Shown here one piece after another: positions 16,422 to 37,412 of a DNA stretch of 64,000 bases. This DNA comes from an uncultured Chloroflexia bacterium (GTDB lineage Bacteria; Chloroflexota; Limnocylindria; Limnocylindrales; CSP1-4), in assembly GCA_963768655.1 (NCBI GenBank), contig CAVYIM010000004.1:512001-576000 (forward strand), given 5' to 3'. The notes under the pieces are model-generated. The model was given only the letters and a program-made list of their open reading frames with translations. It made no database searches and had not been told where the DNA came from. The position numbers were made by a program, and so were the translations under genes. Each line of letters opens with the position of its first letter. Position 1 is the first letter of the stretch.

Positions 16422-16448
16422 GATGGGGTCCTTTCGTGGATGGTATTT

Positions 16449-19714: not shown

Positions 19715-19759
19715 AGAAGGATTGCACGTGAAGCCGGGGCAGGTGGCACGGCCCTGAGT

Positions 19760-19783: not shown

Positions 19784-20020
19784 TATCTCCCATTCGTCGC
19801 GTCGGCAAGGCGACCGGATTCGTTCCAGGTCTACCGTCTCTCGGCATCAGCCACAAGCTGACGGTGCAACCGCAGAAAACCGTTTGGGACCATCGGACCG
19901 CCTCGTACCACTAACAATCCCAAGACTCCGGAGGTAGGGTTCGGCTAGAGACTCGGCGTAGCCAATGGGTCGGTTGGGCCGTAGGTGACCATCCCAGTCC
20001 GAGTCGACAAGGGGTCGCGT

Positions 20021-20644: not shown

Positions 20645-20664
20645 TTGCCTAGGGGGTTGCGGAG

Positions 20665-21357: not shown

Positions 21358-21365
21358 TCATTGGT

Positions 21366-21720
21366 TCAGCTGCCGGAATTGCTTTCTTCGTCGACTCGGC
21401 CTTGGTGAGCTTGACCTCTAGGAGTCCGAAGTTCGTCTAGGAGACGTCCAAGCCCCCGATACGCGGCGAGCGTGCGCCGGAATGCGGGAAGGACGAGCGG
21501 CCGTGCAAGCGTGGCCGCTTCCGCCTTGAGGTCGATCCGAGCCAGCTCCGCGCTCGTCAGAGCCACCAGGACGGTGCGGACGACCAGCAAACCGAAAGAG
21601 TGCCAACTCGGCAAAGGCTTCGACGGTCTCCCGAACCGCGAGCAACAGGACGCCCGCGAGCGTTCCGAGCAACGCAACCCAGACCTGCCTGTTCGAGAAG
21701 AGGCGGCTCAGTCGGATCAT
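21366..21720 (-). pseudogene. Possible small membrane protein, frameshifted
   Basis: MIRLSRLFSNRQVWVALLGTLAGVLLLAV appears to continue in another frame as LLVVRTVLVALTSAELAR. Confidence 0.35.
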
Positions 21721-21940
21721 GTCGTCAGCATTGCGAGCCCGGCGACGCCTCGGGCGGGTCTGGTCGAGCATCGCCGACCCCGTGCGCCCGGGTGCATGGA
21801 GCAGCCCGAGAGTGAGTGCCTTCGACGTGATCTGGCCATCCGAGTTCCAGGCGTGTTCGATCGTCACGGTCAAACTGACGCCAGCCGAGCGGCTGTAAAA
21901 CCGTGGCCTACAGGAGCGTCGGCAGTCGTACCATGAACAA

Positions 21941-22381
21941 ATGCCCGACCCAATCGCCACTGCGCTAATCGCTGGCCTGAGCGCGGTTGTCGGCGGTCTC
22001 ATCGCAGCAATCGGCAAGCCGTGGGGCCAGGACTGGGTGGCTCGCCAGGCTGAGAAACGCGCCGCGCAAAGAGCACGCGAGGCCGAATACAGGGTGCGTC
22101 TCGAACGTGTGCTGCAACTCCTCGGAATAGTCTCGGTCGAAGGATGGCCCACGCCGGAACACGAGCGAGAAGGGCACGAGCTACCCGCGGCGGCTTACGC
22201 TGTCAACGACCAATTGCTGATTGATGCGGTGACCAGAATGTCGGGTTTCTCTCGCACTTCTACCGAATGGGCCGCCGCTCGTAACGCTGCCAACCGGCGG
22301 GTCGGCGAACTTCTGAGTAGCCAACTGTTGGTCCCCGACCCTTTGGTTCGCGCCAAACTTGGAACGAAACTCGACGAGTGA
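21941..22381 (+). CDS. Hypothetical protein with N-terminal TM helix
   Basis: MPDPIATALIAGLSAVVGGLIAAIG; overlaps the HNH start (GTGA). Confidence 0.65.
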   Translation: MPDPIATALIAGLSAVVGGLIAAIGKPWGQDWVARQAEKRAAQRAREAEYRVRLERVLQLLGIVSVEGWPTPEHEREGHELPAAAYAVNDQLLIDAVTRMSGFSRTSTEWAAARNAANRRVGELLSSQLLVPDPLVRAKLGTKLDE

Positions 22382-22918
22382 TCGTGACCACGAGACAGCC
22401 GGCGCCTTTCGAAAGCTACCCAGAGGGCGGACGCATGCTCCTCAGACGGCCGAAGTCCGGGGACGGCTCTGCCCGCGGTGGCTATGGCCGCGATGTCCTC
22501 GTTTGGTGTGGGTTCAGGTGCGCTTACTGCGGGCTCGACATAGAGCAGTTCGAGGGCTGGCTGCAACTGTCGGTGGGACCACGTGATACCACGGCAGGCT
22601 AAGGTGCTCGGCTATCCGAAGGACTGGCTGCGGAACCAGATCAACACTGTTGCGTGCTGCCGCCCATGCAACGACTTGTACAACCGAGAACAGCCCGCCG
22701 AACCCGCCCCGGCCACGCTCGAGGAATTCCTTGAGATCCGTTACGCCGCATTCCGCCGCCGCAAGGCCCACATTCTCGAACGTCGCGAGGCTGAGCGTGT
22801 CAAGTTCGCGAATACGTCCGCGCAACGGGCGACGGCGCTTAGCGGACCTAGCCGGGCATCTGGCTCTCCGCCGCATTCGCTGCGTTCAGCCCGATGCAAC
22901 CGCCGATCTTCGCCCTGA
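22378..22918 (+). pseudogene. HNH endonuclease, one frameshift
   Basis: CAYCG...LSV[DH]VIP...NTVACCRPCN; removing one G from GTGGGACCAC restores VDHVIP. Confidence 0.8.
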
Positions 22919-23294
22919 TCTGGTTGACCGTGTCCAACATGAGCTGACCCTTGTGTCGGCTCGCAGCCAAGTCATCCTTGAGCATCGGAAACACGATATC
23001 GGCTTGCGCCATGCAGTCCTGATCGGTGCCTCCGTCGCCCTTACGGAGTTGTACGTCGTGCTTCTCCACGAAGTTATCGATGCCGGCGGAAAGAAGAACG
23101 ACCAGCAGCACCCGAGTCCAGGTGTCCCGACAGTCGCGCTTGCATGAAACGACCACGATCCACCGCTCGTCCCGGGGCGGATGCACCACTCCGTGCGCTT
23201 TCGGCAGCACAACATCGGCAGGGTCAACGGTGAAGACGTCACCTGGCCGGAGAACGGTACCTTCGGCTCCCGCCGCGCTATCTGCCGGCGCCAC
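22848..23294 (-). CDS. PemK/MazF-like toxin
   Basis: RPGDVFTVD...RWIVVVS...LLVVLLS...GGTDQDCMAQADIVFPM.K..L...GQL; lies directly downstream of the Panacea gene. Confidence 0.7.
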   Translation of the reverse strand: MAPADSAAGAEGTVLRPGDVFTVDPADVVLPKAHGVVHPPRDERWIVVVSCKRDCRDTWTRVLLVVLLSAGIDNFVEKHDVQLRKGDGGTDQDCMAQADIVFPMLKDDLAASRHKGQLMLDTVNQIRAKIGGCIGLNAANAAESQMPG

Positions 23295-23904
23295 TGAGTG
23301 CGCGGTTCACGAACGGTGCCATCGCCGCCAGAGCGTCCTTCTGTTTGGCGACCCTGTCTGCAAGCTCTTGCTGTCGTTCTGGCGTGGCCGTTTCCGGCTC
23401 TTCTGCAATTGCCCTAGGGTCAGTCATACGGTGAAAGTCGATAGGCGTGTCGATGAGCTCGTGCCGCGACGACGCTCTTCGATTTCAATGAGCCGCATAG
23501 GTGTAGTGGCATACGCCAGCCGCTTCACCTCGTCATCGGTAAGTCGAGACGTCAGCGCCAAGATGCGTCGAGCACTTGGATCGCGTCCTCGCTGAGCTGA
23601 GGCTCGAACCTCGGAGCAGGCCCTCTGCGGACCTCGGCACTTCGCGGCCGGAGTTGGTTTGCCGCTTCTCGTCTTCGGTCTCGTGCCCCTTCATCTCGCC
23701 TAGCGATGGAAGCATCGCCTTCGTCATGGGCCCGTACTTCTCGCGGACCCAGGTGGCATCGGTGATCGTCCGCCCCGTCTCAAGGTAGTGCTCCAAGTCG
23801 GCAAGGTACAGGAGCTTGTGGAGCCGCGTCATGCGAACTGACTCCGTCCTCAGCACGATGGCCAGGATTGCTTGTCTGAAGGGGGTCGACTCGGGCGCAG
23901 TCAC
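23278..23904 (-). pseudogene. Panacea (DUF4065/SocA-like) antitoxin, frameshifted
   Basis: TRLHKLLYLADLEHYLETGRTIT...W.REKYGPM; later LAYATTPM in another frame; stop overlaps the toxin start. Confidence 0.8.
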
Positions 23905-23941
23905 GCCTATATCGTAGCTGCCCCGCGCGAAGCTGCAACGG

Positions 23942-25530
23942 TCAATACTGCAAGGGCGTTCTAGACTCCCAGCGCGAAAGGGCGGTCGCCGACTGGCTTC
24001 CCCGGTCCATCCCTTTGAGACTATTCCGAGTCGTAGTCCTCTGGGGCCTCGGCAGCACGGCCAACAACTGCAGCTCTTCGGGCCTCGCGGCCGCCGCCCT
24101 CCCGGCTCGGCGGTGCGTCACGTTGGCACCGGTGACGTGCGGATAATCGACGCCCTGGCCGCCGAGCAACTGGCTGATCGTTCGAAGCTGAAGGCGGGGA
24201 TGTTTGCCCCAGGGCGACTCAAACCCGGCTTCTGCCGCTTCCGCTCGCATTCCCGTACTGGGCTCCTCGAATGAGAGCAGGACGCCGATCTCCGCCCGTT
24301 CGCGTTCAACGACTCCTCGCAAGTCGCGGACATAGTTCGGGACCAAGTGTCCGGCCTTGACGCTGAACACAATCTGACGAGTCTCGGAGCCGCCCTCATG
24401 GAAGTAGAGGCGGCCGTCGATCCCCTTGTCGCCGCCCTTCTTGTCGCTGCCGGCGATTCTGGCACCGACGAGCCCGAGAGCCCAAGCCTGGAACTGGAAC
24501 GGGTCATCTTTGGCGAGCACGCGCGCGTCGTCGACTGTCGTCGGCTCGCCGATCACGCGGTAGGTCTTGGCGATCTCCGGGCCGTAGCGATCGACGAGGC
24601 GGTGCTTGATCAGGCCGATGGAAAGATGAGTGATGTCGATGCCGATCCAACGGCGGCCGAGGGCTTGCGCCGCGTCCACCGTCGTTCCGCAGCCACAGAA
24701 CGGGTCGAGCACTTCGTCGCCAGGGTCGCTCGCCATCTCGATTATCCGGGCCAATAGGGCGACGGGTTTCTGCGTCGGATAGCCGAGCTTCTCGCGGCTG
24801 GCCGGTTGGAGCATTGGCATGCGCCACACGTCGTCAGCCATCCGGTGGGTTCGCTCTCTATGTACTGGACGTGCCCGTCCTCGCCCTTCGCGTTGACGAG
24901 CCTCTGCGTCTCGCCGTCCCAGGCGACGTTTGAGCATCTTCGCCGGGCCGCCCTCGCGAGCTTCCATGACCGGGTGAAACATGAACTCGCGGCTCTTCGA
25001 GTACCAGAAGATCAAGTCGTGGTCGGAGGCCAGCCGATGAATGTTGCCTTGCATCTTGTTGAAGTAGTGCCAGACGATCTCGTTCCGGAAGGCGGCCGGT
25101 CCAAAGACAGCATCGAGGAGCACCTTCAGGTAGTGGCTGGCGGACGGGTCGCAGTGGAGATACAGCTCCCGGTCGATTTCAACACTCGCCGCAGTTCGAC
25201 CAGCCGAGGTGCCATCATCGACAGGTAGGCGAGCATGTCGTTATCGCCTAGCACGGTCCGGAATGCCTGCATCGGCCAACGAACCTGACCGCCGCCGGAC
25301 TCGACCACCTCTTCATAGGCGGCTGGGCTGAACGTTCCATTCCACGTATCCTCGAATGCCTTGATCTGGGCGGCGGACCCCGTCGCCATGTTCCGCGAAC
25401 AGCACGTTGTAGTTCTGGTCCGACTTGAACGGCGGGTCAAGATAGACGAGATCGACGGACTCGTCGCGACGTATCGCTGGAGAACGTCGAGGTTGTCGCC
25501 GTAATAGAGGAGGTTCGGTTCCCCGCTCAT
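23942..25530 (-). pseudogene. N4/N6 DNA methyltransferase fused to a C-terminal Mrr-like endonuclease domain, several frameshifts
   Basis: YYGDNLDVL, LVYLDPPF, GYPTQKP..LL.RII, VLDPFCGCGTT, then FQFQAWAL...DKGIDG...VSVKAG. Confidence 0.85.
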
Positions 25531-25696
25531 CCGTCTCTCCAGCAGTTCGCCCGGTGCCAGGCGGGCCGCCTGGCCGTGTCCATCCTAGTCGACCCGTAGC
25601 CCGCGACGCAGATCCCTTGGGCGCGCCGACTAAACGACCGGCTGGCCGCGAGGGGGAACGGCCGGCCGGTCGGACACGTGGGGTAGGGTAGACGCC

Positions 25697-26726
25697 TCAG
25701 CCGTCGGTCGGGCGGCGAGACGGCAATTCGGGCCCCTCGGTGGCCGCCCTCGGCCGCCGCCCGTCTGCGCTGTGGGCCCAGCGGCAACGCTCCCCGCACC
25801 AGCGCTGGCCGCGCCGCTTTGGTCGGAACGTGTTGCCGCAGTGACCGCAGGGCCGCGGCGCCCGCCAGCTCGTCTGTAGCAGCGATCCGACAGAGGTGAT
25901 GGCCGGCCAGCTCGCCTCATCGAGCGTCTTCTGGTAGGCGGTGGCCAGCGGTCCGACGGCCAGGTCGAACCCTGCAGGCGCATGCCGTTCTCGGTCGGGG
26001 CCACGTGGGCAGAGACCTTGAGCAGCCGCTGCATGGGCCCGGCGAGGACGTAGCTCAGGCAGTACAGGGCCTGGATGTAGGCTCCGGCGCCTTTCCAGCT
26101 CGCGTCGGTCGGAACAGCCACGCCATACAGCCGAGCGAGGTTCGTTCCGGACATGGCCTGGTGATCAGGGTCGCGCTGGACATCGGTGAGAAAGCCCGGC
26201 TGGTAGTTCATCTGGCGCTCGACCTCGGCCCGAAGCTCGGCGCCGCGTAGCTCGCGGATCGCGCGGAGAATTGCCCGAGCCTGGGCGAAGTAGCGCAGGG
26301 CGAGCCCGATCTCTTCCACGCTCTCGCCCCGTTCCCGCCGGGCGGCTCGGACGCCAACAAATCCTTCGCTCTCACCCACGCGAGGATGGACGCTGCGTCG
26401 CCCGCTCCGAGGGCCACCAGCTCATCGGATAGGCCGGCACGATCCGACGGTCTCCAGATGCGGGCCGGCCCGTGCAGTTCCGGGGTGGTATCCACGATCC
26501 GACGGACCCACAACTCGCCCGAGGCGAGCTTGTACTCGCCGCGGCGCAGCCGGGTCCAGTTGCCGCGGGTGTCGGGCTGGGCGTACTTCGGCTCGCCGGC
26601 GAGTCGGAGCACCGGCCCTGGGTCCATGACGAACCTATCTACGGCGTCCTCGACGTCGTAGCTCTCCCCTACGGTCCAGCTCGTGGCGTCCAGCGCCGCG
26701 TCCGTCCCGGCCCTTGTCTCCGCCAT
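25697..26726 (-). pseudogene. Hypothetical protein with a C-terminal CGNR-like zinc finger, frameshifted
   Basis: Manual translation of the 3' part gives RPCGHCGNTFRPKRRGQRWCGERCRW; divergent from the XRE gene. Confidence 0.6.
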
Positions 26727-26787
26727 GGCGTCCCTCGCTTAGTCCACGTGTTCGATTTCGTCCATGGTACCGGAGATAGTTCGCTCT

Positions 26788-27018
26788 ATGACTAGCAACG
26801 ATCGCTCCCAACGACCAACCGGACTCAACCTCAAGTTCGCCCGCCTCGCCCGTGGCGTCCAGGCGCGGGCGATCGCGGCCTCGCTCGGGGTCTCGCCGCA
26901 GCGGGTCTCGACCATCGAAGCCTCCCTCCACCCCAGCCCCGAGATGGCCGCGCGCTACCTGGCTGCGCTCGATGCCCTCGCCCCGGCGGGCGACCCGGAA
27001 GGGGGCCGCCGCCCATGA
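26788..27018 (+). CDS. XRE-family HTH regulator
   Basis: LKFARLARGVQARAIAASLGVSPQRVSTIE. Confidence 0.8.
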   Translation: MTSNDRSQRPTGLNLKFARLARGVQARAIAASLGVSPQRVSTIEASLHPSPEMAARYLAALDALAPAGDPEGGRRP

Positions 27019-27209
27019 ACAGCAGGCGCTGTCTCTCCTGTGGCGACCAGCTCGACATCACGAGCCGGTCGGATCGGCGGACCTGCTCGGATCTCTGCCG
27101 AAAGCGCAAGTCGCTGGCGGGGCAAGCTCAGCGTCGCGCACTGCGCCTCAGAGCCCACGCCCCGCGGCGTGGAGGCCGCCGAAGGTCCACTGGCTTCCTC
27201 GGGCGCTAA
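27015..27209 (+). CDS. Small zinc-finger protein
   Basis: CLSCG...RSDRRTCSDLCR; ATGA-coupled to the HTH gene. Confidence 0.6.
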   Translation: MNSRRCLSCGDQLDITSRSDRRTCSDLCRKRKSLAGQAQRRALRLRAHAPRRGGRRRSTGFLGR

Positions 27210-27233
27210 CTGTGAAGGAAGGGGCTCACAGCT

Positions 27234-28550
27234 GTGACAGACCCCGCGCACGCCCCGGAGCCGATGGGCGCGATCACTGGGCGGCTTGGTTTCCCGGAGC
27301 GAGCCATCGCGCCGGACCAGATACGGCCGGAGGTGGTCATCACGCACCTCTCGACGGTGAAGCCATTGCCACTCGAATGGTTGTGGCAAGGCTACATTCC
27401 GGCGGGGATGATCACGATCATCGACGGCGACCCAGGTCTGGGCAAGAGCATGCTGACGCTCGATCTGGTGGCCAAGGTGACTCGCGGATTGCCGATGCCG
27501 GGGAGCCGGCCTGAGTCCGCCGGAAGGCCCAGAGGCGCCGTCCTGCTCTCAGCTGAAGACGACCTCGCGCACACCATAGTCCCGCGGCTCATCGCTGCCG
27601 GGGCCGACCTGGACCGCGTGGTGGTCGTGAGTCTGCGGGAGCGCGACGGCACCTCCCGGGAGCCCATCATTACTCCGGCCGACCTTGAGGCAGTCGAGAA
27701 GGCCATCGTCGAGGTCGACGCCGCGATCGTCATCATCGATCCCCTGGTGGCCTACTTGCCAGCCACGGCCAGTGCCAATCGCGACCAGGACGTGCGTTGC
27801 ACCCTGGCACCCCTGGCGGACCTCGCCGAGAGAACCGGGGCCGCGGTCGTCGTGGTGCGGCATCTGCGCAAGGCGGCCGCCGACAACGCGCTGTACCGAG
27901 GCGGAGGATCGATCGCCTTCATCGGTGCCGCCCGGGTTGGGTTGCTCGTGGCTCTCGACCCCGACGACGAAACCGAACAGCGGCGCATCCTCGCCAGCCT
28001 CAAGAGCAACGTCGGACCCAAGCCGCCGAGACTCATCTTCACCGTGGAAGTCCATCCGGGCCAGCCTCAGCCCCGAATTGTCTGGCGTGGCGAGACCGAC
28101 CATCGCGCCGACGATCTCCTGGTCCCCATGGACCGTGGCGAACGGAGCGCCATCGACGACGCCAAGGAGTTCCTGATCGAGCTGCTCGCGGGCGGGCCGG
28201 TGCCGTCCCGCGAGGTCGAAAGGCAGGGCTTGGAGGCCGCCATCTCCAAGGCCAGCCTTGGGCGGGCCAAGACGCTTCTGAGGGTCAAGTCGACCAGACC
28301 CGAGGGCTTCACCGGGCCGTGGTTCTGGGCGCTGCCCGAGACGTACATGCGCAACGAAGGCCGTACATCCTCACCTCTCGAAGTTGAGGACGTACGGGCA
28401 GGCCTGAGGAGGTACGGGGCCGCCAGCACCGGCACGGCCGACGCCGCGGCGGACGGGCCGAGTGCCCGGTGGCATTGCCCGGCCGGGTCCGGGCACGCCC
28501 CGGCGACCCACCCCGACGGCACGATCTACTGCGGGACGTGCCATCCATGA
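27234..28550 (+). CDS. AAA_25 / RepA-like helicase-type ATPase (element replication)
   Basis: EWLWQGYIPAG, GDPGLGKS (Walker A), SAEDD, IIDP, VVRHLRK, GSIAF...AR, KSN. Confidence 0.88.
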   Translation: MTDPAHAPEPMGAITGRLGFPERAIAPDQIRPEVVITHLSTVKPLPLEWLWQGYIPAGMITIIDGDPGLGKSMLTLDLVAKVTRGLPMPGSRPESAGRPRGAVLLSAEDDLAHTIVPRLIAAGADLDRVVVVSLRERDGTSREPIITPADLEAVEKAIVEVDAAIVIIDPLVAYLPATASANRDQDVRCTLAPLADLAERTGAAVVVVRHLRKAAADNALYRGGGSIAFIGAARVGLLVALDPDDETEQRRILASLKSNVGPKPPRLIFTVEVHPGQPQPRIVWRGETDHRADDLLVPMDRGERSAIDDAKEFLIELLAGGPVPSREVERQGLEAAISKASLGRAKTLLRVKSTRPEGFTGPWFWALPETYMRNEGRTSSPLEVEDVRAGLRRYGAASTGTADAAADGPSARWHCPAGSGHAPATHPDGTIYCGTCHP

Positions 28551-29242
28551 GCAGCATCCGCCGGGCTGCGCCGGGTTTCGATCCAGCCAGAGACGACTCT
28601 TTCGTGCTGCCGACCCGCCAGCAGGCCGAAGATGCGGGCGCAAATGCCCTCGCCGCTCTCCTGCGCCGGGGCATCGAAAGGCACCTACGGGAACCCGGGG
28701 CCACATTCGATGACGCGCTTCGAGAAGCGGCCCGCGATGTCCTCCGAGGCTCGCTCGACGAGGCCATCAGGGGCCAGCGGGGCGGGTACTGCATGCGCGC
28801 GCCGACCGACCCGGTCCTCTATGCGATCGGACGTCTCGGCGCCGCTCTCGTGGAGCTGAGCTACACAGTGCGCAATCCGGCCCGCGCCGTTGCGGAAGCG
28901 GCCCGGCTGTTCGGCGAGTATTCCCGCCGCTCCGTCGCCATCAACATCGCTATCAACGCCGCCAGCACCGCCGCCAAGGCCGGGTCCACCCCGACCGATG
29001 CCCCGGACAGGCCCCTCGACCAACCGGCAAGGTCCGGGTCCGACCGCACCGACACCGCCGTCCTCGCCGGCAACCGCCCGGCAGAGCCCGTGTCCGGCCC
29101 GGCCGGGACCGCGGCCCTGGCCGGCAATCGGCCCTCAAAGCCCGAGTCCAGGTCCAGACGGGCCGCTGATGCTGTGCTCTCGATCACCAACGTCGCAGAG
29201 CCCGTGCCCAGCCGGGAAGCTCGGCCCGGGAGCCGGCGATGA
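28547..29242 (+). CDS. Hypothetical protein with a repetitive C-terminus
   Basis: ATGA-coupled to the AAA gene; LAGNRP..P.S repeated. Confidence 0.5.
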   Translation: MSSIRRAAPGFDPARDDSFVLPTRQQAEDAGANALAALLRRGIERHLREPGATFDDALREAARDVLRGSLDEAIRGQRGGYCMRAPTDPVLYAIGRLGAALVELSYTVRNPARAVAEAARLFGEYSRRSVAINIAINAASTAAKAGSTPTDAPDRPLDQPARSGSDRTDTAVLAGNRPAEPVSGPAGTAALAGNRPSKPESRSRRAADAVLSITNVAEPVPSREARPGSRR

Positions 29243-29412
29243 ACCGCCCGCGCCCGCCGGCACAGACCCCGGGCTCGTCCACCTCATCGGGCCGTGCCCG
29301 GACCATCGAGCCCGGTGATCCGCTGGTGCGGGCCCTGGCGGTATGCGTCCGCCAGGCCTATGCGCGGCGTCGCACCGGCAGAACGGACTAGCGGAACGGA
29401 TGGCGTCGCGTT

Positions 29413-30908
29413 ATGACTAGCGTCATGCACCAGCTACCCCGCTTCCTGGACCAGATAGCCGGTCTGCGGGTGGCCCGCTGGCTCCGGGAATCCACGGTGG
29501 GCCAGTGGGACAACTGGGGGCCCGACTCTCAGCGCGAGCTTCAGGACCGGACCATCGCCCGTCACGGCCTCATCGATACCGGCCTCGTCTGGCAGAGCGC
29601 CAAGTCGGGCCGGACCGTGTACCAGAGCATCGAGTTCGGGGCCAGAGCGCCGCCGCGAAAGCCGGCAAGTTCGACATCCTGCTGGTCGGGTATGTCTCTC
29701 GGTTCCAGCGGAACCTCAAACAGACCCTGATCGCCGTCGACGAGCTTCATGCCCTCGGGGTTGCCGTCGTCTTCTGCGACGAGCGGATCGTCTCCTCGGA
29801 CCCCGAGCGCTGGGATGAGCTGGTCCGCGAGGCCCACGAGGCCGAGTCCTACAGTCGCAAGCTCGGCCGCCGGATCGGCGAAGGCCTCGCCGCCAAACGG
29901 CGCCGCCTGGGCGAACCCGGTGGCCAGCCCTCGTATGGATACATCCGGACCGGCAAGCCGCCGGTATTGGAGCCGGTCTCGGCCGAGCTGGAGCGGGTCA
30001 GGGCCGCGTTCGCCGCCGCTGCCGAGGGCATGACCGACCGCGAGGTCTCCGAGCGGGTCGGCCTCCCGTTCTACACCGTCCGGCACATCCTGACCAACCC
30101 GGTCTATGCCGGGCGCCTGCGGGACGGGACCCCGACCCGGGTCCCAGCGGTCATCGATCAACACACCTGGGACGCCGTCCAGCTCGCCCGGAGCCGGTTC
30201 AGCCGCCGGCATCCCGGCCGGCCCACGACCCGGCGTCCCTATGCGCTCTCCATGCTCCACTGCGCCGCCTGCGGCCGGCACCTAATCGGCCAGGCCGCCC
30301 GCTACCGCCACACCTTCCCGTGTCCCGAATGGCTCGGCGCCGCCCGGCCCGCACCGCGGGCTTTCCACAACTCGACCGACCATCGCCACAAGGGCGTGAG
30401 CTATCCCGCGGACTCGTATGAGAACTTGGTCCGCCAGGCCCTCGCTCACGTCAGCGCCAACGCCGAGCTGGCCGCCGTCGTCGTCGCGCGGCTCGCCGAA
30501 GACGAGACCGCACCCGATCCCGTCGCCCTGGCCCGCATCGAGCGTGACCGCGAAGCCGCCATGGCCCGCTACCGCCGCGACCGGGACACGGCCGCCCTGG
30601 AGGCGACCATGAGGTCGCTCGATCAGGAGGAGGCGACGGCCAGGGCCGCGCATACCGACGGGCTGACGTCAGAGGAGGCGATCGAGTCGCTGCGCGAGCT
30701 GCCGAAGCTCTGGGACGACGCCGAACCGTCGGGCCGCAAGCTCCTGGCCGAGGCTCTGTTCGAGCGGATCGATGTCCTGGCAGCCCGCAAGGTGAGGCTG
30801 CACCCGAGCGCATCTGCCAAGGCTCAGGGGTGGGACATTGCCTGGAATGGGGCTCGATTGGTTGTTATGGTCGGGGCGAGAGGAGTAGCGCCGACACCAT
30901 GCGGGTGA
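29413..30908 (+). CDS. Large serine recombinase (resolvase, recombinase and zinc-ribbon domains), one frameshift near 29645
   Basis: RWLRESTVGQ...SQ...SG...SRFQRN, PSYGY, ILTNPVYAG, PAVID..TWDAVQ, CAACG; the C-terminus VMVGARG runs through the att-like site. Confidence 0.9.
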
Positions 30909-30921
30909 TCGTTCGGGTCGG
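30870..30921 (+). repeat. att-like site R0 (overlaps the recombinase 3' end)
   Basis: GTCGGGGCGAGAGG-AGTAGCG-CCGACACCATGCGGGTGA. Confidence 0.8.
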
Positions 30922-31081
30922 TGTCTCGACCGAAGGGCGTAGCCAACGGGCTGGCCTGAGGCTGCACGTCCTGCGAGCCTGGTCCCCAGCCCTCATCCGT
31001 CGGCCCAGCTGCCGCGTATCCATGGCAGGGCAATCGACGTGGCGCAAGCCATCCGGGCTCAGCGGCTAGGGGGAGGCGCAC

Positions 31082-31543
31082 ATGCGTTGCAGGGCGCTCG
31101 CGTCGCTGCTGTTGCTGGCTCTCGTTCCCGCGGCGTGCGCTCCAGGCACCGCCACGCCAGCTCCCCCGAGCCTGTCGGACGCCGTCCGCACGGCGAAGCT
31201 GGCCCTGCGCGTCTCGATGGCCAGGGAGCTGCCCTGGTATGCGGCCCTGATCCTTGGCGACGACGGGATGCCGGCGGTGGAGATCGCGCAAGGCGACGTG
31301 CTGTATGTGCCCATTGATCCGAGCCGTCTCAACCCCAGCGCTGGCGAGGTCGCCAACGCAGGGTCCTCGGCGGTGGCGGTCGGGGACATATGTTTCACGA
31401 TTGCCGGCGAATACCTGCCAGTTGGCGAGTCCGCCGACTCCCTGGGCATCGAGTGGGTTTTCATGCGCGCGGCCGGGAGCACCATCTACGAGTGCCCCGT
31501 GCATCCTCCCGGCATAACCATCCTCCCATCGCAGCGCCCATGA
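31082..31543 (+). CDS. Cassette 1: putative lipoprotein
   Basis: MRCRALASLLLLALVPAAC (signal plus lipobox-like Cys); GGAGG RBS; only plausible gene between R0 and R1. Confidence 0.7.
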   Translation: MRCRALASLLLLALVPAACAPGTATPAPPSLSDAVRTAKLALRVSMARELPWYAALILGDDGMPAVEIAQGDVLYVPIDPSRLNPSAGEVANAGSSAVAVGDICFTIAGEYLPVGESADSLGIEWVFMRAAGSTIYECPVHPPGITILPSQRP

Positions 31544-31611
31544 CCAGACGAGAGGGGATCGTGAAGAGGTCACCCTGGCGTAGGCGTCTTGGGGCTCGCG
31601 TCTACCGCGAT

Positions 31612-31664
31612 GGTAGCTTGGGCAGGAGTTGCGCCGACACTTCACGGGTGAAGGTGCGGAGCGG
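31612..31664 (+). repeat. att-like site R1
   Basis: GGTAGCTTGGGCAGG-AGTTGCG-CCGACACTTCACGGGTGAAGGTGCGGAGCGG. Confidence 0.85.
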
Positions 31665-31832
31665 AGCTGAAGCCGACCCTGAGCCCGCTTGCGCCATTCA
31701 ACCGGTCGTCGCTGTCGCCTGAGTGAAGCCTGTGTCCGGGGCGACAAGCGACGGCCCGCGTGCTCGCCCGAACGTCCAGCAGCCGGGGGAGCGGGACGTT
31801 TTCGGCTCAGGGTCCGTTGGTATGATCGCTCG

Positions 31833-32297
31833 GTGGAACCACTTAACCAACCATCCAACCTGCCCGGCTCTCAATGGCCGCCCCCTTCGATGGGCAGAAT
31901 GCCTGGACGCCAAGTGTGGCTCTATGCCGGGGTCGCTGTAGTCGCGTTCCTACTGGGGCTCCTATCCGTCTGGATAGGCCTTAGGATCGCGGTTGCGGCC
32001 GCCGACGACTGCGGCGTCCTCTTCGACTCGGGCGGTAACTTCGCCATTGGAATGCTGTTCCTCTTCCTCCTGCCCACCGTCCCGACTGCGAACTGCCTGC
32101 TGTCGCTGCTCGCGGCGAGATTCCATCCGGCCGCTGGACTGCTGGCTGCCGTGGTGCTCTCATGCGCCGTGGTGCTAGTGCTGGTGATCACTCATGCGCT
32201 GGGTTCGGCCCCGATCATTCCTTCGTTGGGGCCAGACTACGGCAGCGCGTGCCCGTCGGGCGTGCCTCCGTGGTGGCCGTCCTGGCTGCCACGGTAG
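31833..32297 (+). CDS. Cassette 2: multi-TM membrane protein, paralog of 34554-35018
   Basis: LSVWIGLRIAVAAADDCGV.FDSG...CPSGVP.WWP.W.PR. GTG start lies 6 nt after TGGTATGAT. Confidence 0.8.
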   Translation: MEPLNQPSNLPGSQWPPPSMGRMPGRQVWLYAGVAVVAFLLGLLSVWIGLRIAVAAADDCGVLFDSGGNFAIGMLFLFLLPTVPTANCLLSLLAARFHPAAGLLAAVVLSCAVVLVLVITHALGSAPIIPSLGPDYGSACPSGVPPWWPSWLPR

Positions 32298-32310
32298 GCA
32301 GCCGGTCGGG

Positions 32311-32370
32311 ATGGGATCGGAGACTTCTTCGGAGTCGGGCCGACACTATAGGGGTGAAGGTGCGGAGCGG
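32311..32370 (+). repeat. att-like site R2
   Basis: ATGGGATCGGAGACTTCTTCGG-AGTCGGG-CCGACACTATAGGGGTGAAGGTGCGGAGCGG. Confidence 0.85.
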
Positions 32371-32709
32371 TGGGCCAACGCCCGGAGCCAGCGTGCCACT
32401 GCCTCCACGTCAGGTGGCGGGGCCTGCCTGACGGTTCTGAATTCGGCCGGAGGCCGCTCTGGCCAGGCCTGGCCAGACGTCACATTTGGGCTCATCGCGC
32501 CCGCAGAGACGGGGCTTGTCAGCCCCGATGCGGCAGAACGGTGCGAGGTCTGTTGTGGGGCTGAGCCCAAGGCGCGGCCGTATTCTCGGGGCTTCAGGTC
32601 GAGAGTAGAGTGCAGGACCATTGACACGGTGCGCCACCGGACGAGCGTATTGCGCGTCCGAAGAGCGGACGCACGAGCGGCGTAGTGCAGGTATGACAGG
32701 GGGTGCGCG

Positions 32710-33345
32710 GTGAAAGCGACGATCGGACGAGGGGCGCGGCGCGTCGTCGCCGGCATGCTGTTCTCCGCCCTCGTGGGCGGTTGTGGCACGACACAGCCTG
32801 TCACTTCTCCGGCTCCTTCCGCGTCGAGCGTCTCGCCCGCCGTGGCGACCACGGCGGAACCTACGGAATCACCGACACCGACAGCGAGCGCTGCGGCCGC
32901 GGCCTGTGCATCGGCGGACCTTGCGATCACTGCGCTCAATGCCGGCGGCGGCGTCGGGACGGTCGGCGGCTGGTTACGGTTCCAGAACGTCGGAACGGAA
33001 CCCTGCACACTCACGGGCTGGCCGCAGGTCGTCGGAGTCACGGCCGGAGGGGCAAGGACGACAGCCGGCCAAGCCATGGCCCTTCTCGACTCCCCAGTGA
33101 TCTCCGGCACACCGGTTGTCGCCATCGCGCCCGGCGAGTCGGCCTTCGCGGTCTACGCTGGCGGGGACAACCCGACCGGGAGCGCAGGCTCGTGCCCTCC
33201 GCCGTACCACACCTTGCAGGTGACGGCGCCCGGGACGACGAAGTCGGTCTCCGTCTCGGCCTACAACGCCTGGCTCGGGCAGGATTTACCGTCGTGTGTC
33301 GGGATCGAGGTTACCCCGGTCATGGGCGCGAGCCTCATGCCGTAG
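32710..33345 (+). CDS. Cassette 3: DUF4232-like lipoprotein
   Basis: Lipobox LVGGC, S/T/P linker, CASADL...GGWLRFQNVGTEPCTLTGWPQV...IAPGESA...LQVTAPG. Confidence 0.8.
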   Translation: MKATIGRGARRVVAGMLFSALVGGCGTTQPVTSPAPSASSVSPAVATTAEPTESPTPTASAAAAACASADLAITALNAGGGVGTVGGWLRFQNVGTEPCTLTGWPQVVGVTAGGARTTAGQAMALLDSPVISGTPVVAIAPGESAFAVYAGGDNPTGSAGSCPPPYHTLQVTAPGTTKSVSVSAYNAWLGQDLPSCVGIEVTPVMGASLMP

Positions 33346-33422
33346 CTCTCGACTCTGCGGCCGTAGCCCGTTACGTGAGCACGATCGCGAAGGTGCGGGC
33401 GTTCCCCAACGCGTCTGACAGC

Positions 33423-33446
33423 GGTAGCTTCGGAAGGAGTCGGGCC
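33423..33446 (+). repeat. att-like site R3
   Basis: GGTAGCTTCGGAAGG-AGTCGGG-CC; left arm like R1, core like R2, divergent right arm. Confidence 0.75.
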
Positions 33447-33754
33447 TAGGCTAACCCGCTCGTCGGGGGTCTGGACCCCACGTCTCTACCGAGGCCGCGT
33501 CCTCGTTACGATGGGCGGCGCCAGAGGTCTCGGTTTGCGCACGTGTTCCTCCTCTGTTCGGCCAAAGTCTGGTGGCCCGTCGGTTGAGTCGTTCAGTTGA
33601 TGAAATCACCTCCTCCCTCGACGACCCACCCTCTCCGAAGATGCGACCGATTGCTCGGCCTGGGCACGGCGCAAGTCCCCTGGTTCCGACCGATGGTGCG
33701 AAACTCTAGCGATGAGGCCGAAGTTGCAGGGCCTGTTTGGAGCTTTGACGGCCG

Positions 33755-34270
33755 TTAGATGTCGCTGAAGATGAATGCGCCCGTGTAGTAATCGAGGATG
33801 ATCATCAGCGGACCGGGTTGGGGCCAGCAGGGCGAAGCCAAGGGGCTGGCGGCCGGCGGAGCGCAGACAACGGTGTTCGTGTCGTACGTGATGGCCCACA
33901 CGAGCCGCTTCGGGCTGTATAGGGCCGGTCCCAGCGCCGATCCAATGCCTGGCTGGGGGTCGACCGAGCTCCACGGTCCAGACTCGGCACTCACCAGGTG
34001 AGCGGTGCTATCGACGTCCTGATTGGCCAGGTCGATGGCACGGTCGCAGGTGATGCCGCCCGGCGCCGGAGATGCTGCGTTCACACAAGTGATGCTCGAC
34101 GCGTCGGCTCCGCTCGGCGCCAGGGCAGCCCCGGATCCAGAGGGGTTGCCGGTACCGGCAACGCAGCCCGCCAGCACGAGGGCGATGGCGATGGCAAGGC
34201 CACCGAGCAGCGACTTCGACGCGGCGCCTCCGGCGGGGCGGCGCTGGCCCCCGGGTTCAACGTTAGCCAT
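33755..34270 (-). CDS. Cassette 4: putative lipoprotein, paralog of 17467-17955
   Basis: Lipobox VLAGC; RLVWAIT...CAPP...C.P.PG...LDYYTGAF. Confidence 0.78.
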   Translation of the reverse strand: MANVEPGGQRRPAGGAASKSLLGGLAIAIALVLAGCVAGTGNPSGSGAALAPSGADASSITCVNAASPAPGGITCDRAIDLANQDVDSTAHLVSAESGPWSSVDPQPGIGSALGPALYSPKRLVWAITYDTNTVVCAPPAASPLASPCWPQPGPLMIILDYYTGAFIFSDI

Positions 34271-34417
34271 CGTGGCCCCCAGAGCAGATAACGAACTCCG
34301 TCATGCTCCCACCCGGCGCCTGGCACTTCAATATCGCGTTTCGAGGCCCAGCGATTCTGACCCTGCTTACTGCTCAGTGACTTCGTCAGATTCCCCCATG
34401 AGGAGAAGCCGACCTTC

Positions 34418-34477
34418 ATGGGATCGGAGCCGTCTTTGGAGTAGAGCCGACACTTTACGGCTGAAGGTGCGGAGCGG
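34418..34477 (+). repeat. att-like site R4
   Basis: ATGGGATCGGAGCCGTCTTTGG-AGTAGAG-CCGACACTTTACGGCTGAAGGTGCGGAGCGG. Confidence 0.85.
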
Positions 34478-34553
34478 GGCTGAACACGCCTTCGCCGACC
34501 AGTGGGTCGTCGACAGGACCCATTCGGCTTAGCGTCGTTGCTATGATCCATCG

Positions 34554-35018
34554 GTGGACCCCCTGAACCAACCCACCGCCAGAACCGGCCCTCAGTGGCC
34601 AGGCGGTCCACCGAACCCCAGTCCAGCAGCCAGACACCACTCCGCGTGGCTCTACGTTGGAGTCGCGTTGGCAGCCTGTCTGCTGGGGGTGTTGTCCGTC
34701 TGGATCGGCATGAGGATCGCGGTTGCCGCTGCCGACGACTGCGGGGTCTACTTCGACTCGGGCAATGACGGTGCCTTGGGGCTCCAGTTCGTGCTACTGG
34801 CCCCTACAGTCGCTGCGGCCAACTGTCTCCTGTCCCTCCTTGCGGCGCGAATCCATCCGGCCGCTGGATTCCTGGTGGCCGCAGGGCTCGCGGTACTCGT
34901 CACGTTTGTGTTGGTAGGCACCCACTCCCTCTCCTGGGCGCCGTCCGGACCCGACATGGGGGGCTACCTGTGCCCGTCCGGGGTGCCGACCTGGTGGCCG
35001 TGGTGGATGCCACGATAA
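34554..35018 (+). CDS. Cassette 5: multi-TM membrane protein, paralog of 31833-32297
   Basis: Same motifs as cassette 2; GTG start lies 6 nt after TGCTATGAT. Confidence 0.8.
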   Translation: MDPLNQPTARTGPQWPGGPPNPSPAARHHSAWLYVGVALAACLLGVLSVWIGMRIAVAAADDCGVYFDSGNDGALGLQFVLLAPTVAAANCLLSLLAARIHPAAGFLVAAGLAVLVTFVLVGTHSLSWAPSGPDMGGYLCPSGVPTWWPWWMPR

Positions 35019-35036
35019 GGCGGCCAGTTCTCGATC

Positions 35037-35074
35037 GGATCGGAGCCGTCTTTGGAGTGGAGCCTCCGACCTCT
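35037..35074 (+). repeat. att-like site R5 (right boundary of the island)
   Basis: GGATCGGAGCCGTCTTTGG-AGTGGAG-CCTCCGACCTCT; left arm identical to R4. Confidence 0.8.
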
Positions 35075-35079
35075 CCCGA

Positions 35080-35808
35080 TCAGGAAGGCGGGGGAGGGCC
35101 TTCACGGAGCGAGTCCCCGTCGGCGACGCGATAGCCGATGCCGGGCTCCGTTTCGATCAGGCCGTCGAGCGAGACGTCGGTGACGGCCGAGAGCTTGCGG
35201 CGCAGGCGATTGACGTATACGTGGAGGTAGGCACTCTCCTCCGCGTACGCGAGACCCCAGACCGCGCGCAGCAGCCGGGCCTTGGTGAGGACCCGGCCCT
35301 GATTCGAGAGCAGCACCTTCAGCAGCTCGTACTCGCGCGGGGTCAGGCGGACCGGCGCCCCCGCGACCCTGACTTCCCGGCGTACCTGGTCGAGCTCGAT
35401 GGGGCCGAGCCGCAGGCGGCCCGAGGCGTCGGCGTCGACTCCGCCGGCGCGCCGCAGCACGGCCCGGATGCGGGCGTTCAACTCGTCCGTGGCGAATGGC
35501 TTGGTCAGGTAGTCGTCGGCGCCCGCCTCGAGTCCACCGATCTTGTCGCGCTCGTCGCCGCGGGCAGAGAGGATGATGATCGGCGTCGTGGCTTCGCGCC
35601 GAATACGGCGAATCACGTCGACGCCATCGAGATCCGGCAGTCCTAGATCGAGCAGCACAAGGTCCGCCCGGTGCGCATCCCAGAGACGCATCGCTTCCTT
35701 CGCCGAGGCGGCTCCGTGGACGTCGTAGCCGCGCCGGGTCAGGTACTCGGCCAGGGTTCGTCGCGCACCGTCCTCATCCTCGACGAGCAGGAGCGCCGGC
35801 CCGCTCAT
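35080..35808 (-). CDS. kdpE: Second KdpE-like OmpR-family response regulator
   Basis: LLLVEDE, LLDLGLPDLDG, GADDYLTKPF, LLRAVWG...YLHVYVNRLRRKL; clear paralog of 4738-5442. Confidence 0.88.
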   Translation of the reverse strand: MSGPALLLVEDEDGARRTLAEYLTRRGYDVHGAASAKEAMRLWDAHRADLVLLDLGLPDLDGVDVIRRIRREATTPIIILSARGDERDKIGGLEAGADDYLTKPFATDELNARIRAVLRRAGGVDADASGRLRLGPIELDQVRREVRVAGAPVRLTPREYELLKVLLSNQGRVLTKARLLRAVWGLAYAEESAYLHVYVNRLRRKLSAVTDVSLDGLIETEPGIGYRVADGDSLREGPPPPS

Positions 35809-37412
35809 GCCGTCTCGCCCGAAGCCGGCGCCGGCACGCGCTGGGGTGGGGTGGGATCGGCCGACTGTTCGGGCACGATGGCCCGGTGGAGCCGGACGTC
35901 CACCCGCAGGCCACCAAGCTCGCTGCGGCACGCCGACACCTGGCCTTCCATCGCCCGCGTCAGGCCCTCGACGACGGTCAGGCCGATGCCCATGCCCCGC
36001 CGCTGTGCCTCGCCCGGCGCTCCGGCCTGGTAGAACTTCTCGAACAGGTGCGGCAGGGCTGTGTCCGGCACTCCGCGCCCGTCATCCTCGACGCTGACCT
36101 GCACGAGCCCGTCCGGGAGCTCGCGGCCGCCGACGCGGATCGTGTCGCCGCCGTAACGGATCGCGTTCTCGATCAAGTTGCCGAGGACCTGGCCGAGGTA
36201 CAGCTCGTCCGCCAGCACCGGCGAGAGTGGTTCGATCAGCTCGACGACGATGCGCCTGTCGGGATTGACGCGGGCCCGCCTGACAGCCTGACGGACCACG
36301 TCTTCGAGGTCGCAGGGCTCCAGCTCCGGCTTGAGGGCGCCGCCTTCGATGCGGCTCAGGTCGAGCAGGTTCCGGACCAGCCTGCCCATCCGCTCGGCCT
36401 CCGCGTCGATCGCCTGGAACGCCTGCCGGTGGTCGTCCTCGGACCACTTCACCGACTCGTCGAGCATGCTGCCGGCAGCGGCCCGGATCGTCGCCAGCGG
36501 GGTGCGCAGGTCGTGGGATACGGAATCGAGCAGGGCCGTCTTCAGGGCCTCGCTCTGGCGGGCGATCTCGGCGCTGGTCGCCTCCTGGGTCAGGCGGTCG
36601 CGGACGATGGCCTGACCGAGCTGGTCGGCGGCCGCGGACAGGATCCTGGTCTCGGCCTGATCGGGCTCGAGCTCGTCGCGCGCCCGGAGCGCCCACAGCG
36701 AGCCGAGCGTTTCGCCGGCTACCTCGATACGGACGCGGTGCAGCGCGGCGCGCGGGCCGCGCCAGGCACTCCTGCTCGCCACGTGCGCCCGAACCCAGCG
36801 CATCTGACCGTCCGGCCGGCGCTGCAGCACGACCTGCCAGCCCGGCATCGGGAGTGGCTCCGGCGCGGCCGTGTCGGCGAGGGTCCGTTCCTCGGACGGG
36901 GTCGCGCCCAGGCTGACCCAGACCCGATCCATGGCCGTGAGCATCTCCAGCCGCGTGGCCACGGCCGGGGCCGCCTCGGCGACGGTGCGGGTCGCCGCGA
37001 GCACGCTCGTGATGGCGTGGAGCGCCTCCGCTTCGCGGGCCCGGTCCGCGGCTTCACGCGTCCGCTCCGCCTGGAGCGCGGCCAGGCGACCGATGACGGA
37101 GGCGACGGCGAGCAGGAGGAGCAGGTTCAGCCATTCGTCGGGGCTGTTTATCGTGAGGGTGTAGAGCGGCTCGACGAACAGGAAGTCGTACAGAAGGAAT
37201 GCCGCGACCGAGGTCAGCATCGCCGGCGCCGTGCCGTAGCGCATGCCGACGGCGAGCACCGCGAGCAGGTAGACCGGCGCCGGGTAGGTGACGTGGATGC
37301 CGGCCCGGAGGAGGGCGATCGTCAGCGTCGAGGCGCCGAGCGAGGCAAGTGCCAGCGCGACCATCCCGACCAGATCCGCCCGCCTGGGGAGCCTGACTCG
37401 CCAGATATCCAT
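35805..37412 (-). CDS. kdpD: Second KdpD-type membrane kinase (DUF4118-GAF-HisKA-HATPase)
   Basis: YDFLFVEPLYTLTI, SVSHDLRTPL, NLIENAIRY, GMGIGL; stop overlaps the regulator ATG (ATGA). Confidence 0.85.
   Translation of the reverse strand: MDIWRVRLPRRADLVGMVALALASLGASTLTIALLRAGIHVTYPAPVYLLAVLAVGMRYGTAPAMLTSVAAFLLYDFLFVEPLYTLTINSPDEWLNLLLLLAVASVIGRLAALQAERTREAADRAREAEALHAITSVLAATRTVAEAAPAVATRLEMLTAMDRVWVSLGATPSEERTLADTAAPEPLPMPGWQVVLQRRPDGQMRWVRAHVASRSAWRGPRAALHRVRIEVAGETLGSLWALRARDELEPDQAETRILSAAADQLGQAIVRDRLTQEATSAEIARQSEALKTALLDSVSHDLRTPLATIRAAAGSMLDESVKWSEDDHRQAFQAIDAEAERMGRLVRNLLDLSRIEGGALKPELEPCDLEDVVRQAVRRARVNPDRRIVVELIEPLSPVLADELYLGQVLGNLIENAIRYGGDTIRVGGRELPDGLVQVSVEDDGRGVPDTALPHLFEKFYQAGAPGEAQRRGMGIGLTVVEGLTRAMEGQVSACRSELGGLRVDVRLHRAIVPEQSADPTPPQRVPAPASGETA

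Follow-up and report, generated by a model that had tools for sequence, protein, structure and literature searches.

A serine recombinase element and five single-gene units probably accreted at a tRNA-Pro-like attachment site in an uncultured Limnocylindrales bacterium

In staphylococci, elements of the staphylococcal cassette chromosome (SCC) insert serially by means of CcrAB at the 3' end of rlmH, and the resulting arrays include recombinase-less units that carry the same short repeats and are mobilised in trans or in tandem. The subject of this report is an array of small units lying directly behind the gene of a large serine recombinase (LSR). It is found in a stretch of 64,000 nucleotides (the window) from an uncultured Chloroflexia bacterium of the order Limnocylindrales (assembly GCA_963768655.1, contig CAVYIM010000004.1, positions 512,001 to 576,000). 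The closest known counterparts are the ssrA islands of Dehalococcoides; by analogy these islands, SCC and pseudo-SCC arrays, tycheposons and cis-mobilizable elements (CIMEs) appear to be products of the same kind of process.

As described in the available part of the original report (McMurdie et al. 2011, PMC3146451), the Dehalococcoides islands use a CcrB-like serine integrase, DsiB, with a crossover in the T-loop of the tDNA; after every insertion a directly repeated copy of the tDNA 3' end remains, and the islands stand in tandem. The 3' end of the integrase gene overlaps the attachment (att) site, so that the C-terminus of the protein varies with its neighbour, and next to the repeat is a conserved motif on the element side. 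Roughly one half of the islands lack the integration module and were proposed to be cis-mobilisable, while the module itself comprises six genes, with a second small serine recombinase (DsiA) and ParB. Tycheposons of Prochlorococcus, in the portion of the account available, are cargo elements that integrate at tRNA genes; each further round of integration drives the older ones inward and leaves partial tRNAs behind, integration and replication modules accompany the cargo, and a large serine recombinase occurs in a minority (27 of 937) (10.1101/2020.12.28.424599). CIMEs are outlined, in the excerpt at hand, as att-flanked units lacking integration genes that share the 3' end of a target gene with a functional element, arranged in tandem with it, and as decay products of integrative and conjugative or integrative and mobilizable elements using tyrosine integrases (Pavlovic 2004 and Bellanger 2011, cited in PMC5704250).

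The comparisons reported below make it probable that the array arose by serial insertion, at an attB resembling tRNA-Pro, of a 13-kb LSR-encoding element and of five mini-cassettes that lack a recombinase.

Sites of the array and their tRNA-Pro(CGG) identity

The window's own assembly (G000; 3.37 Mb, 9 contigs, 88.6% complete) was compared with a set of 51 genomes of its genus and with a phylum-wide sample of 301 genomes, 6 of them from the genus. In the labels used here, G denotes a genome, L a fetched locus and C a contig. Close relatives are 'Candidatus Limnocylindrales' metagenome-assembled genomes (MAGs) out of peat, fen and soil. The six co-oriented sites that the earlier note had reported, designated R0 to R5, were all found where it had placed them:

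30866..30921 (+), R0: LSR 3' end (P-left, a mimic of the tRNA-Pro 3' end), GGAGT and a variant X arm
31609..31664 (+), R1: left arm A (ATGGTAGCTTGGGCAGGAGT, a diverged P-type arm) and X arm
32314..32370 (+), R2: left arm B (C-type, GATCGG-N10-GGAGT) and X arm
33423..33524 (+), R3: left arm A, GGAGT and a 'Y' arm (~90 nt, with the GGGGGTCTGGACCCC palindrome)
34421..34477 (+), R4: left arm B and X arm
35037..35072 (+), R5, the end of the array: left arm B, GGAGTGGAG and CCTCCGACCTC

The identity of these sites became apparent when their arms were compared with tRNA genes. The left arm of R0, ATGGTCGGGGCGAGAGGA, serves as the final codons of the LSR gene (MVGARGV..., stop codon 30906-30908) and at the same time matches, in reverse complement, the 3' end of tRNA-Pro(CGG), of which it copies the CCA, the discriminator, the acceptor strand and the T-stem. 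The GGAGT.G.GCC 'core' falls at the T-loop position. At the far end of the array, the right arm of R5, CCTCCGACCTC, equals the next 11 nt of the same tRNA (T-stem and variable loop) and is followed by the stop codon of a kdpE-like gene. The first reading had missed the position of R0 inside the final LSR codons, the Y arm of R3 and the tRNA-Pro(CGG) piece in R5. ARAGORN predicted no tRNA in the window; among ten related loci scanned, it called a tRNA-Pro(cgg) that overlaps the LSR 3' end in L041, L044, L046 and L051, on the strand opposite to the LSR gene, and another that ends the array of L016, and it called none at L042, L047, L055, L056 and L028.

The tRNA-Pro-like arm is present at the 3' end of every one of the 13 LSR loci in which that end is complete, so the physical tie between sites and recombinase proposed earlier is borne out well beyond the window. 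To the right, these 13 ends are joined to a tRNA gene in four cases, to a tRNA-like remnant in two, to X in two, to a second arm (X2) in two, to Y in one and to other sequences in two, and the C-terminal tails of the LSRs change with the neighbouring arm. A constant left half combined with many different right halves is the kind of product that site-specific recombination at that point yields. Since the sites reproduce the 3' end of tRNA-Pro(CGG) together with its T-arm, the array can be placed with tandem accretion at a tDNA-type attB, a process known for ssrA islands, SCC arrays and tycheposons; the claim that the system was of an unrecognised kind is thus not supported.

The arms were examined individually by pattern scans. 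The X arm (CCGACAC..GG.TGAAGGTGCGGAGCGG, 30 nt) is present in R1, R2 and R4, with a variant in R0. Searching the whole of its own 3.37-Mb genome with up to two mismatches returned four forward and no reverse matches, all in the array (reversed-pattern control, 0), and relaxing the scan brought in a variant on contig C3 and two more X arms on C7. Left arm B was found at 32314, 34421 and 35037 (three matches, where 100 shuffles predict 0.00) and left arm A at 31612 and 33423 (two, where 0.02 are expected). The distribution of mixed and matched arms first read from the sequence, with X in R1, R2 and R4, A in R1 and R3, and B in R2, R4 and R5, holds in these scans. The Y arm (33435-33524), with a GGGGATCTGGATCCC palindrome inside, has five copies of ~90-100 nt and 82-91% identity in the genome, the others being at C2:55301, C3:516227, C6:188315 and C8:96122. 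It stands directly after an LSR gene at G000:C3 and in G024, where it lengthens the open reading frame (ORF) by ~43 codons.

In a selected set of 57 distinct X sites the left arm is tRNA-type in 21 and of another kind in 36, and 16 of those 36 fit the pattern G(G/A)TCG(G/A/C)-N10-GGA. C-type left arms have X as partner in 19 rows of the arm-pairing table (3 of which look spurious) and a tRNA-like right half in 3 rows; none is paired there with X2, Y, W or T, and two C-left rows in the V class (611 unclassified rows) look like chance matches of the loose C-left pattern. Measured from the G|G centre, the motif GTCGG/CCGAC stands at a distance of 8 nt in X, W and the tRNA-type left arm, and of 11 nt in the cassette left arms and the tRNA right arm. 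The attP and attB sites of serine integrases differ in half-site layout, and the two spacing classes may, by analogy, reflect such a difference; we regard this as a lead rather than a result. An RNA motif was also considered and dropped after an Rfam scan of 28000-37000 (E <= 1), which returned only a sub-threshold L31-leader match at 30188-30238, inside the LSR gene. A loose pattern also matched, by chance, a separate repeat, namely at least 11 near-identical copies of a GGTCCTCCAGCCCGGAGCGTGAGCTGTCACGCTACGGGAGACCCGGAAAGTCG-containing sequence (C3:291066, C4:327515/336108/345751, C5:104819/108529/241814, C7:79372/83534 and C9:27335/31641), which is probably an insertion sequence or intron-like.

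The element that supplies the recombinase has the following parts:

17958..30884 (+), integrative element that encodes the LSR (~13 kb); the cargo over 17.96-25.7 kb varies, whereas the module at 25.7-30.9 kb is conserved
17954..17990 (+), left boundary site of the element: a left arm resembling tRNA-Pro (AGTCGGGGCGAGAGGA), joined to right arm 'W' (GAGGCCGAGATAACAAG)
23942-25123 (-), fusion of an N6/N4 DNA methylase with an Mrr-like nuclease, element cargo (Pfam)
26764..27018 (+), HTH_3 regulator of the conserved module (Pfam E 4.7e-07)
27234..28550 (+), AAA_25 (RepA/helicase-like ATPase) of the conserved module (Pfam E 9.1e-37)
29413..30908 (+), LSR gene with one frameshift near 29640 (Pfam Resolvase E 2.7e-09, Recombinase E 2.3e-04)

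The HTH_3 regulator, the AAA_25 ATPase, a 257-aa ORF and the LSR form the last 5 kb of the element and are kept together among LSR loci; segments inside 25754-29372 show 64-81% nucleotide identity to most related LSR loci. An intact LSR paralogue with 83% identity to that of the window is encoded at G000:C3:516199-517788, and the W arm recurs ~10 kb upstream of the paralogous LSR on that contig. The LSR matches serine integrases in the PDB in the catalytic domain only. No second Resolvase-domain ORF and no ParB were present among the ORFs scanned, from which small ORFs could escape, and no tyrosine recombinase domain was detected in the ORFs scanned between 14 and 36 kb. The cargo also includes zinc-ribbon proteins (Pfam). 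Stretches 74-76% identical to the methylase/Mrr fusion lie within a 2.5-kb X-bounded unit of G009 (L021), and the 1.35-kb cargo segment 18064-19465 (minus-strand ORFs, no Pfam match) has three tandem copies of 83-88% at C5:43082-47931 and weaker copies elsewhere. In G001, contig C6 (L039, L038 and L046) carries three LSR elements of the same orientation in ~75 kb, the last adjoining tRNA-Pro(CGG), and is a very long accretion array.

Single-gene units in unrelated contexts

Each interval between neighbouring sites of the window holds one plausible gene, and ORF and Pfam analysis upheld the earlier view that the intervals contain one small gene apiece. None of the ORFs of the five cassettes (c1 to c5) encodes a recombinase domain, and all are flanked by att-like sites:

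31082..31543 (+), c1 gene, 153 aa, with a signal-peptide or lipobox-like N-terminus and no Pfam family
31833..32297 (+), c2 gene, multi-pass membrane protein and paralogue of c5 (64% aa identity)
32710..33345 (+), c3 gene, DUF4232 lipoprotein (Pfam E 3.6e-15)
33755..34270 (-), c4 gene, inverted lipoprotein, ~90% nucleotide identity to a stretch after an LSR+Y junction in G024
34438..35058 (+), c5 unit, with its gene at 34554-35018

Copies of such units were found in unrelated contexts for four cassette families (88-98% identity), and in each family the homology is bounded at the GGA of the site. The c5 unit (34438-35058) has a copy at G000:C7:59502-60121(-) that is 98.4% identical over 621 nt between unrelated flanks; identity starts at GGA(G/T)T and stops at GGAGT. 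A 1.9-kb unit of L075 and L102 recurs in L104 at 92%. Its left identity begins at GGAGT, and on the right L075 and L104 agree through ...GGTCGGCGTCGCGTCAGGA and continue with TTTGAACCTCCGAC (tRNA-like) and CTTGAGGCCGAGATAACAAG (W arm), respectively. The unit of L082 shared with L144 and L096 (88%) has a tRNA-like right partner in one locus and a 'T' arm in the others, and the unit of L142 shared with L137 and L131 (90-95%) has three different left arms, with identity from GGAGT on.

The bases that follow GGA track the class of the right arm, being TTTGAA for the tRNA, TTAG.G for X2, GTCGGG for Y and (C/T)TTGAGG for W. Sites with a tRNA-type left arm and an X arm have their peak of dyad symmetry between the two G of GGAGT (11.3 of 26, compared with 10.2 one nucleotide away and 3.6-8.4 at the other 20 offsets), and cassette-arm sites have no dyad. 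Judged from these alignments, the crossover would lie in or at GGA. A crossover at the CCGAC motif or at the CC to the right of the spacer was considered and rejected, because the right-end spacers of the c5 copies differ and because the bases after GGA in L075 and L104 follow the right partner. The breakpoints, which had been expected inside the 7-nt core, map instead to the GGA at its left edge. The proposal that units consisting of a right arm, a gene and a left arm had integrated in tandem survives in part: the units behave as separate pieces, with homologues elsewhere and breakpoints at the site, and neither circles nor excision were seen.

Arrays of this kind recur throughout the genus. 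The X arm occurs in 47 of the 51 genus genomes (178 matches; the reversed control gave 6). In the phylum sample, with up to two mismatches, it occurs in 10 of 301 genomes; five of these are genus members (the window's own included), one belongs to a sister genus, and the four single hits elsewhere are at control level (9 control hits). One of the six genus genomes in that sample is without it. A survey with an exact 22-mer retrieved 92 metagenome contig stretches. Co-oriented arrays include L038, with an LSR followed by four more X sites, L019, with five sites, and L028, with six X sites and an end of C-left and GAGCCTCCGACCTC, a tRNA-like remnant like that of R5; L016 ends at a tRNA. Neighbouring sites are 469-3416 nt apart (43 intervals), and on metagenome contigs 468-3553 nt (38 intervals, some of them one locus in several samples).

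The cargo proved more varied than the cell-surface genes to which the earlier note had confined it. Pfam assignments among 33 cassette ORFs scanned include four Kelch-repeat proteins, two CDF transporters, two zinc-ribbon proteins and one each of aldo-keto reductase, DNA methylase, Shedu SduA_C, MFS transporter and WD40; many cassette ORFs have no Pfam family, yet have signal or membrane segments. By 40 crude calls, 22 ORFs point the same way as their site and 18 the opposite way. The c2/c5 protein family occurs in 3 of the 51 genus genomes, and its homologues in G013 (49%) and G004 (37%) have no recognisable flanking sites, so the family is not always in a cassette.

The kdp island and its probable history

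The array is the right part of an island that splits a kdp locus (8206-13917 (-) and 35080-37868 (-)):

14869..35079 (no strand), composite island of ~20.2 kb, from the kdpA-side flank to the 3' end of the kdpE-like gene
35080..35931 (-), kdpE-like response regulator, right chromosomal flank (Pfam Response_reg E 6.3e-31, Trans_reg_C E 1.1e-21), with a true start probably nearer 35811

Third-position GC content (GC3) drops across roughly 17-35 kb of the window, whose overall GC is 62-74%. The left flank, 13238-14868, directly adjoins the kdpE orthologue in G043, G052 and G063 (loci L059, L060 and L063; gap ~0 kb). The gap between kdpA and kdpE is 0.55 kb in G010 (L073), ~10 kb in G005, with one X cassette beside kdpE, and 20 kb in the window. 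At kdpE, G042 and G046 have a tRNA-type left arm joined to a tRNA-like remnant, and G012 has W-type units. Occupancy of the kdp site thus varies among relatives, which identifies ~14869-35079 as a variable island and supports the view that the units integrated as separate pieces. The kdpE-like gene has a match at E <= 1e-20 in 49 of the 51 genus genomes, paralogues counted too.

Other features of the locus are as follows. To the left of the island lie KdpA (12187-13917, Pfam E 1.6e-234) and a receiver-domain protein (14085-14630), and to the right a kdpE/kdpD-like pair; the C-terminal tail of kdpE varies between genomes with and without the tRNA-like remnant. Within the island, a small secreted protein encoded at 17467-17952 (+) has 36% identity to the c4 protein, and its stop codon overlaps the tRNA-type left arm at 17954. 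This gene could represent an older unit, but the sequence upstream yielded no right arm.

We propose that site-specific integration, repeated at a single attachment site mimicking the 3' part of tRNA-Pro(CGG), produced the array and the island around it, and that the LSR encoded just upstream was the enzyme. The final LSR codons, overlapping the copy of the tRNA acceptor and T-stem (TGGTCGGGGCGAGAGGA), would rebuild the tRNA when the element enters a real tRNA-Pro gene. A mini-element would consist of an element-side arm of ~30 nt (X, or Y for c4), one gene, presumably with its own promoter, and a weakly conserved left arm, either GGTCGG/GATCGG-N10-GGA or a diverged tRNA-like arm. Each new circle would recombine at the GGA of GGA(G/T)T, at the junction bearing the tRNA-like right half, so that older units would shift leftward and the tRNA-like remnant would stay at the far right (R5). 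On this scheme the 13-kb element came first and was followed by c1 to c5, and the mini-elements would depend on the LSR acting in trans. Site anatomy, tRNA identity, the link to the LSR, the recurring arrays, the cassette copies with breakpoints at GGA and the variable occupancy of the locus are observations; catalysis by the window LSR, circular intermediates, this order of insertion and present-day activity are inferred.

Several observations weigh against this scheme. The window LSR gene is frameshifted. This may be an assembly error, because other LSR copies in these MAGs are frameshifted too; several LSR genes of related MAGs lie in two to four frames (L031/L051 of G015:C9; L050), which suggests frequent decay or assembly indel errors and bears on the frameshift in the window. 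To our knowledge, canonical LSRs recombine only attP with attB, and repeated insertion at a junction with a cassette-arm left half would call for a looser rule. An LSR relative (E <= 1e-40) is found in 27 of 47 X-positive and 3 of 4 X-negative genomes, which is no association, and none occurs within the 13-20 kb fetched around the arrays L016, L019 and L028. No tRNA-Pro(CGG) gene was found in the 88.6%-complete own assembly, where a search for the tRNA body with up to four mismatches returned only a tRNA-Val; an ARAGORN 'Pro(cgg)' call of 69 nt at C3:247196 was set aside as unlike the genus tRNA. The empty kdp sites of the most distant relatives (G043, G052 and G063) contain no tRNA-like sequence and leave the origin of the attB remnant unexplained. 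That the remnant beside kdpE marks a former tRNA gene was also considered; G010 and G006 have a degenerate tRNA-like stretch of 24 nt at the kdp site, and the three distant genomes have none. The units of L103 and L152 (95%) differ at three of the four spacer positions after GGAGT, a difference that a GGA crossover does not predict and that stays unexplained. Lastly, no excision product, circle or empty array was seen, and the public reads offered only short contigs from one run: of three runs, all as Logan contigs, one contained 13% of the sampled words, in pieces of 36-581 nt. The joints in these pieces skip 34244-35191 (with a 25-nt side) and 78 nt at 35229-35308, on contigs under 95% alike, and one X3 record joins 34228 to 32821, also on a contig under 95% alike; nothing about excision or circles was concluded from them.

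The most serious rival to serial accretion is shuffling in the manner of integrons, in which all sites would be equivalent, any cassette could be excised and reinserted anywhere, order would be freely permuted and no accretion would take place at a tRNA end. Internal junctions are indeed mostly of one type, a cassette left arm with X (the 19 rows mentioned above, or 16 in a stricter set), swapping left halves would leave the site type unchanged, cassette families are nearly confined to single genomes, as in integrons (c2/c5 in 3 of 51), and arrays without a nearby LSR exist. We nevertheless consider such shuffling unlikely, since the three arrays whose far end could be read (window R5, L028 and L016) all end in a tRNA gene or a tRNA-like right half, and a W-type element in L104 sits exactly at the tRNA-like half of L075, as insertion at that end predicts. 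The mixed ORF orientation and the lack of an evident common promoter count against it as well, and we know of no LSR that recombines identical sites.

A still less likely possibility is that the small units are decayed remnants of larger LSR elements, CIME-like products of internal deletion that move only with a neighbouring complete element. The textbook account derives att-flanked units without a recombinase from tandem accretion and subsequent decay, as far as the available parts of the sources show (PMC5704250, PMC3146451), and several LSR copies of the genus are fragmentary or frameshifted. The units nevertheless hold whole genes, with no LSR-element gene fragments seen inside; their sizes cluster at 0.5-2.5 kb; the layout GGTCGG-N10-GGA, shared by 16 of 36 non-tRNA-type left arms, is unlike the LSR's own arm; and single units recur alone in unrelated contexts. 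It is hardly credible that the repeats instead have a regulatory or structural role, as promoter, operator or RNA leader, in a secreted-protein gene family that spread by duplication without recombination. The paralogues c2 and c5 do have similar flanks, and the X arm does lie upstream of four co-oriented window genes. This idea is already contradicted by a left arm made of tRNA sequence and the recombinase's own 3' end, by X arms preceding unrelated genes in both orientations, by homology breakpoints at the site, and by the Rfam scan of 28000-37000, in which nothing matched except the sub-threshold hit outside the repeats.

Comparison with described systems

Serial accretion at a tRNA-Pro-like attB can now be set beside the systems introduced at the outset. 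The array resembles integrons in its mostly single-gene units with their own sites beside a recombinase gene and in its strain-specific content. It is nevertheless no integron, and reads rather as a miniature, integron-like version of an island-building process already known: the adjacent recombinase is of the serine class (Resolvase and Recombinase domains) and not IntI; the sites are double-strand tRNA-like att sites and not folded attC, the weak dyad (11.3 of 26) being limited to sites of P-left and X; genes are of mixed orientation (c4 is inverted in the window), with no common promoter Pc evident; and the insertion point is a tDNA-type attB. SCC and pseudo-SCC arrays (rlmH; CcrAB/CcrC) differ in target, which here is tRNA-Pro-like and beside kdpE, and in the recombinase pair; SCC units are multi-gene, measure several to tens of kb and mimic no tRNA.

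Tycheposons, as presented in the accessible portion of that account, each have their own integrase and carry cargo of up to 10 kb or more. The 13-kb element, with its LSR and AAA_25 ATPase, fits this description loosely, the five small units do not, and single-gene recombinase-less arrays with a dedicated arm are not described in that portion. The units c1 to c5 resemble CIMEs, as excerpted, in being att-flanked and without a recombinase domain, and differ from them in that conserved arms and intact single genes give them the look of a dedicated class. A search of the open-access literature, with subscription journals outside its scope, returned no description of such single-gene arrays.

LSRs have seldom been documented as tRNA-gene integrases, and here one family appears in that role, with restoration of the tRNA, in an uncultured lineage of soil and peat. 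Compared with the islands, SCC elements and tycheposons described so far, the recombinase-less units are much smaller and more uniform, and they reach a one-gene grain otherwise familiar from integrons; cassette-wise gene capture would thus have arisen on a serine-recombinase chassis too. We tentatively raise a bolder idea, in which we place somewhat more doubt than belief: the genus may possess an integron-like LSR platform whose one-gene cassettes of 0.5-3.5 kb, each with its own ~55-bp site (GGTCGG-N10-GGA and the 30-nt X arm), are excised as circles and captured singly in trans at a tRNA-Pro-type attB, with direction perhaps set by the 8/11-nt half-site spacing. The dozens of compatible left and right arms, with a crossover that appears pinned to GGA, would also provide a ready specificity series for serine integrases as genome-engineering tools.

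The likeness to the Dehalococcoides ssrA islands, judged from the part of that report at hand, remains the closest. Both occur in the same phylum, both place the LSR at the element end with its 3' end overlapping the att site (R0; 13 of 13 loci), and in both the tRNA or tmRNA gene is restored with its 3' end repeated directly, as seen here in relatives, the window itself having only a tRNA remnant at R5. Both also form tandem units, some of them without an integration module (the LSR element and five units in the window; three LSR elements in G001 C6). The arrays differ from the islands, as far as that part describes them, in a target of tRNA-Pro(CGG) and tRNA-like remnants rather than ssrA, in units of mostly one gene (0.5-3.5 kb) rather than many, in a conserved 30-nt arm of the units' own (47 of 51 genomes), and in having neither a DsiA-like second recombinase nor ParB among the ORFs scanned. 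What the present locus adds to this known process is a serine-recombinase target in tRNA-Pro, the one-gene size of the recombinase-less units and a dedicated arm that is found genus-wide.

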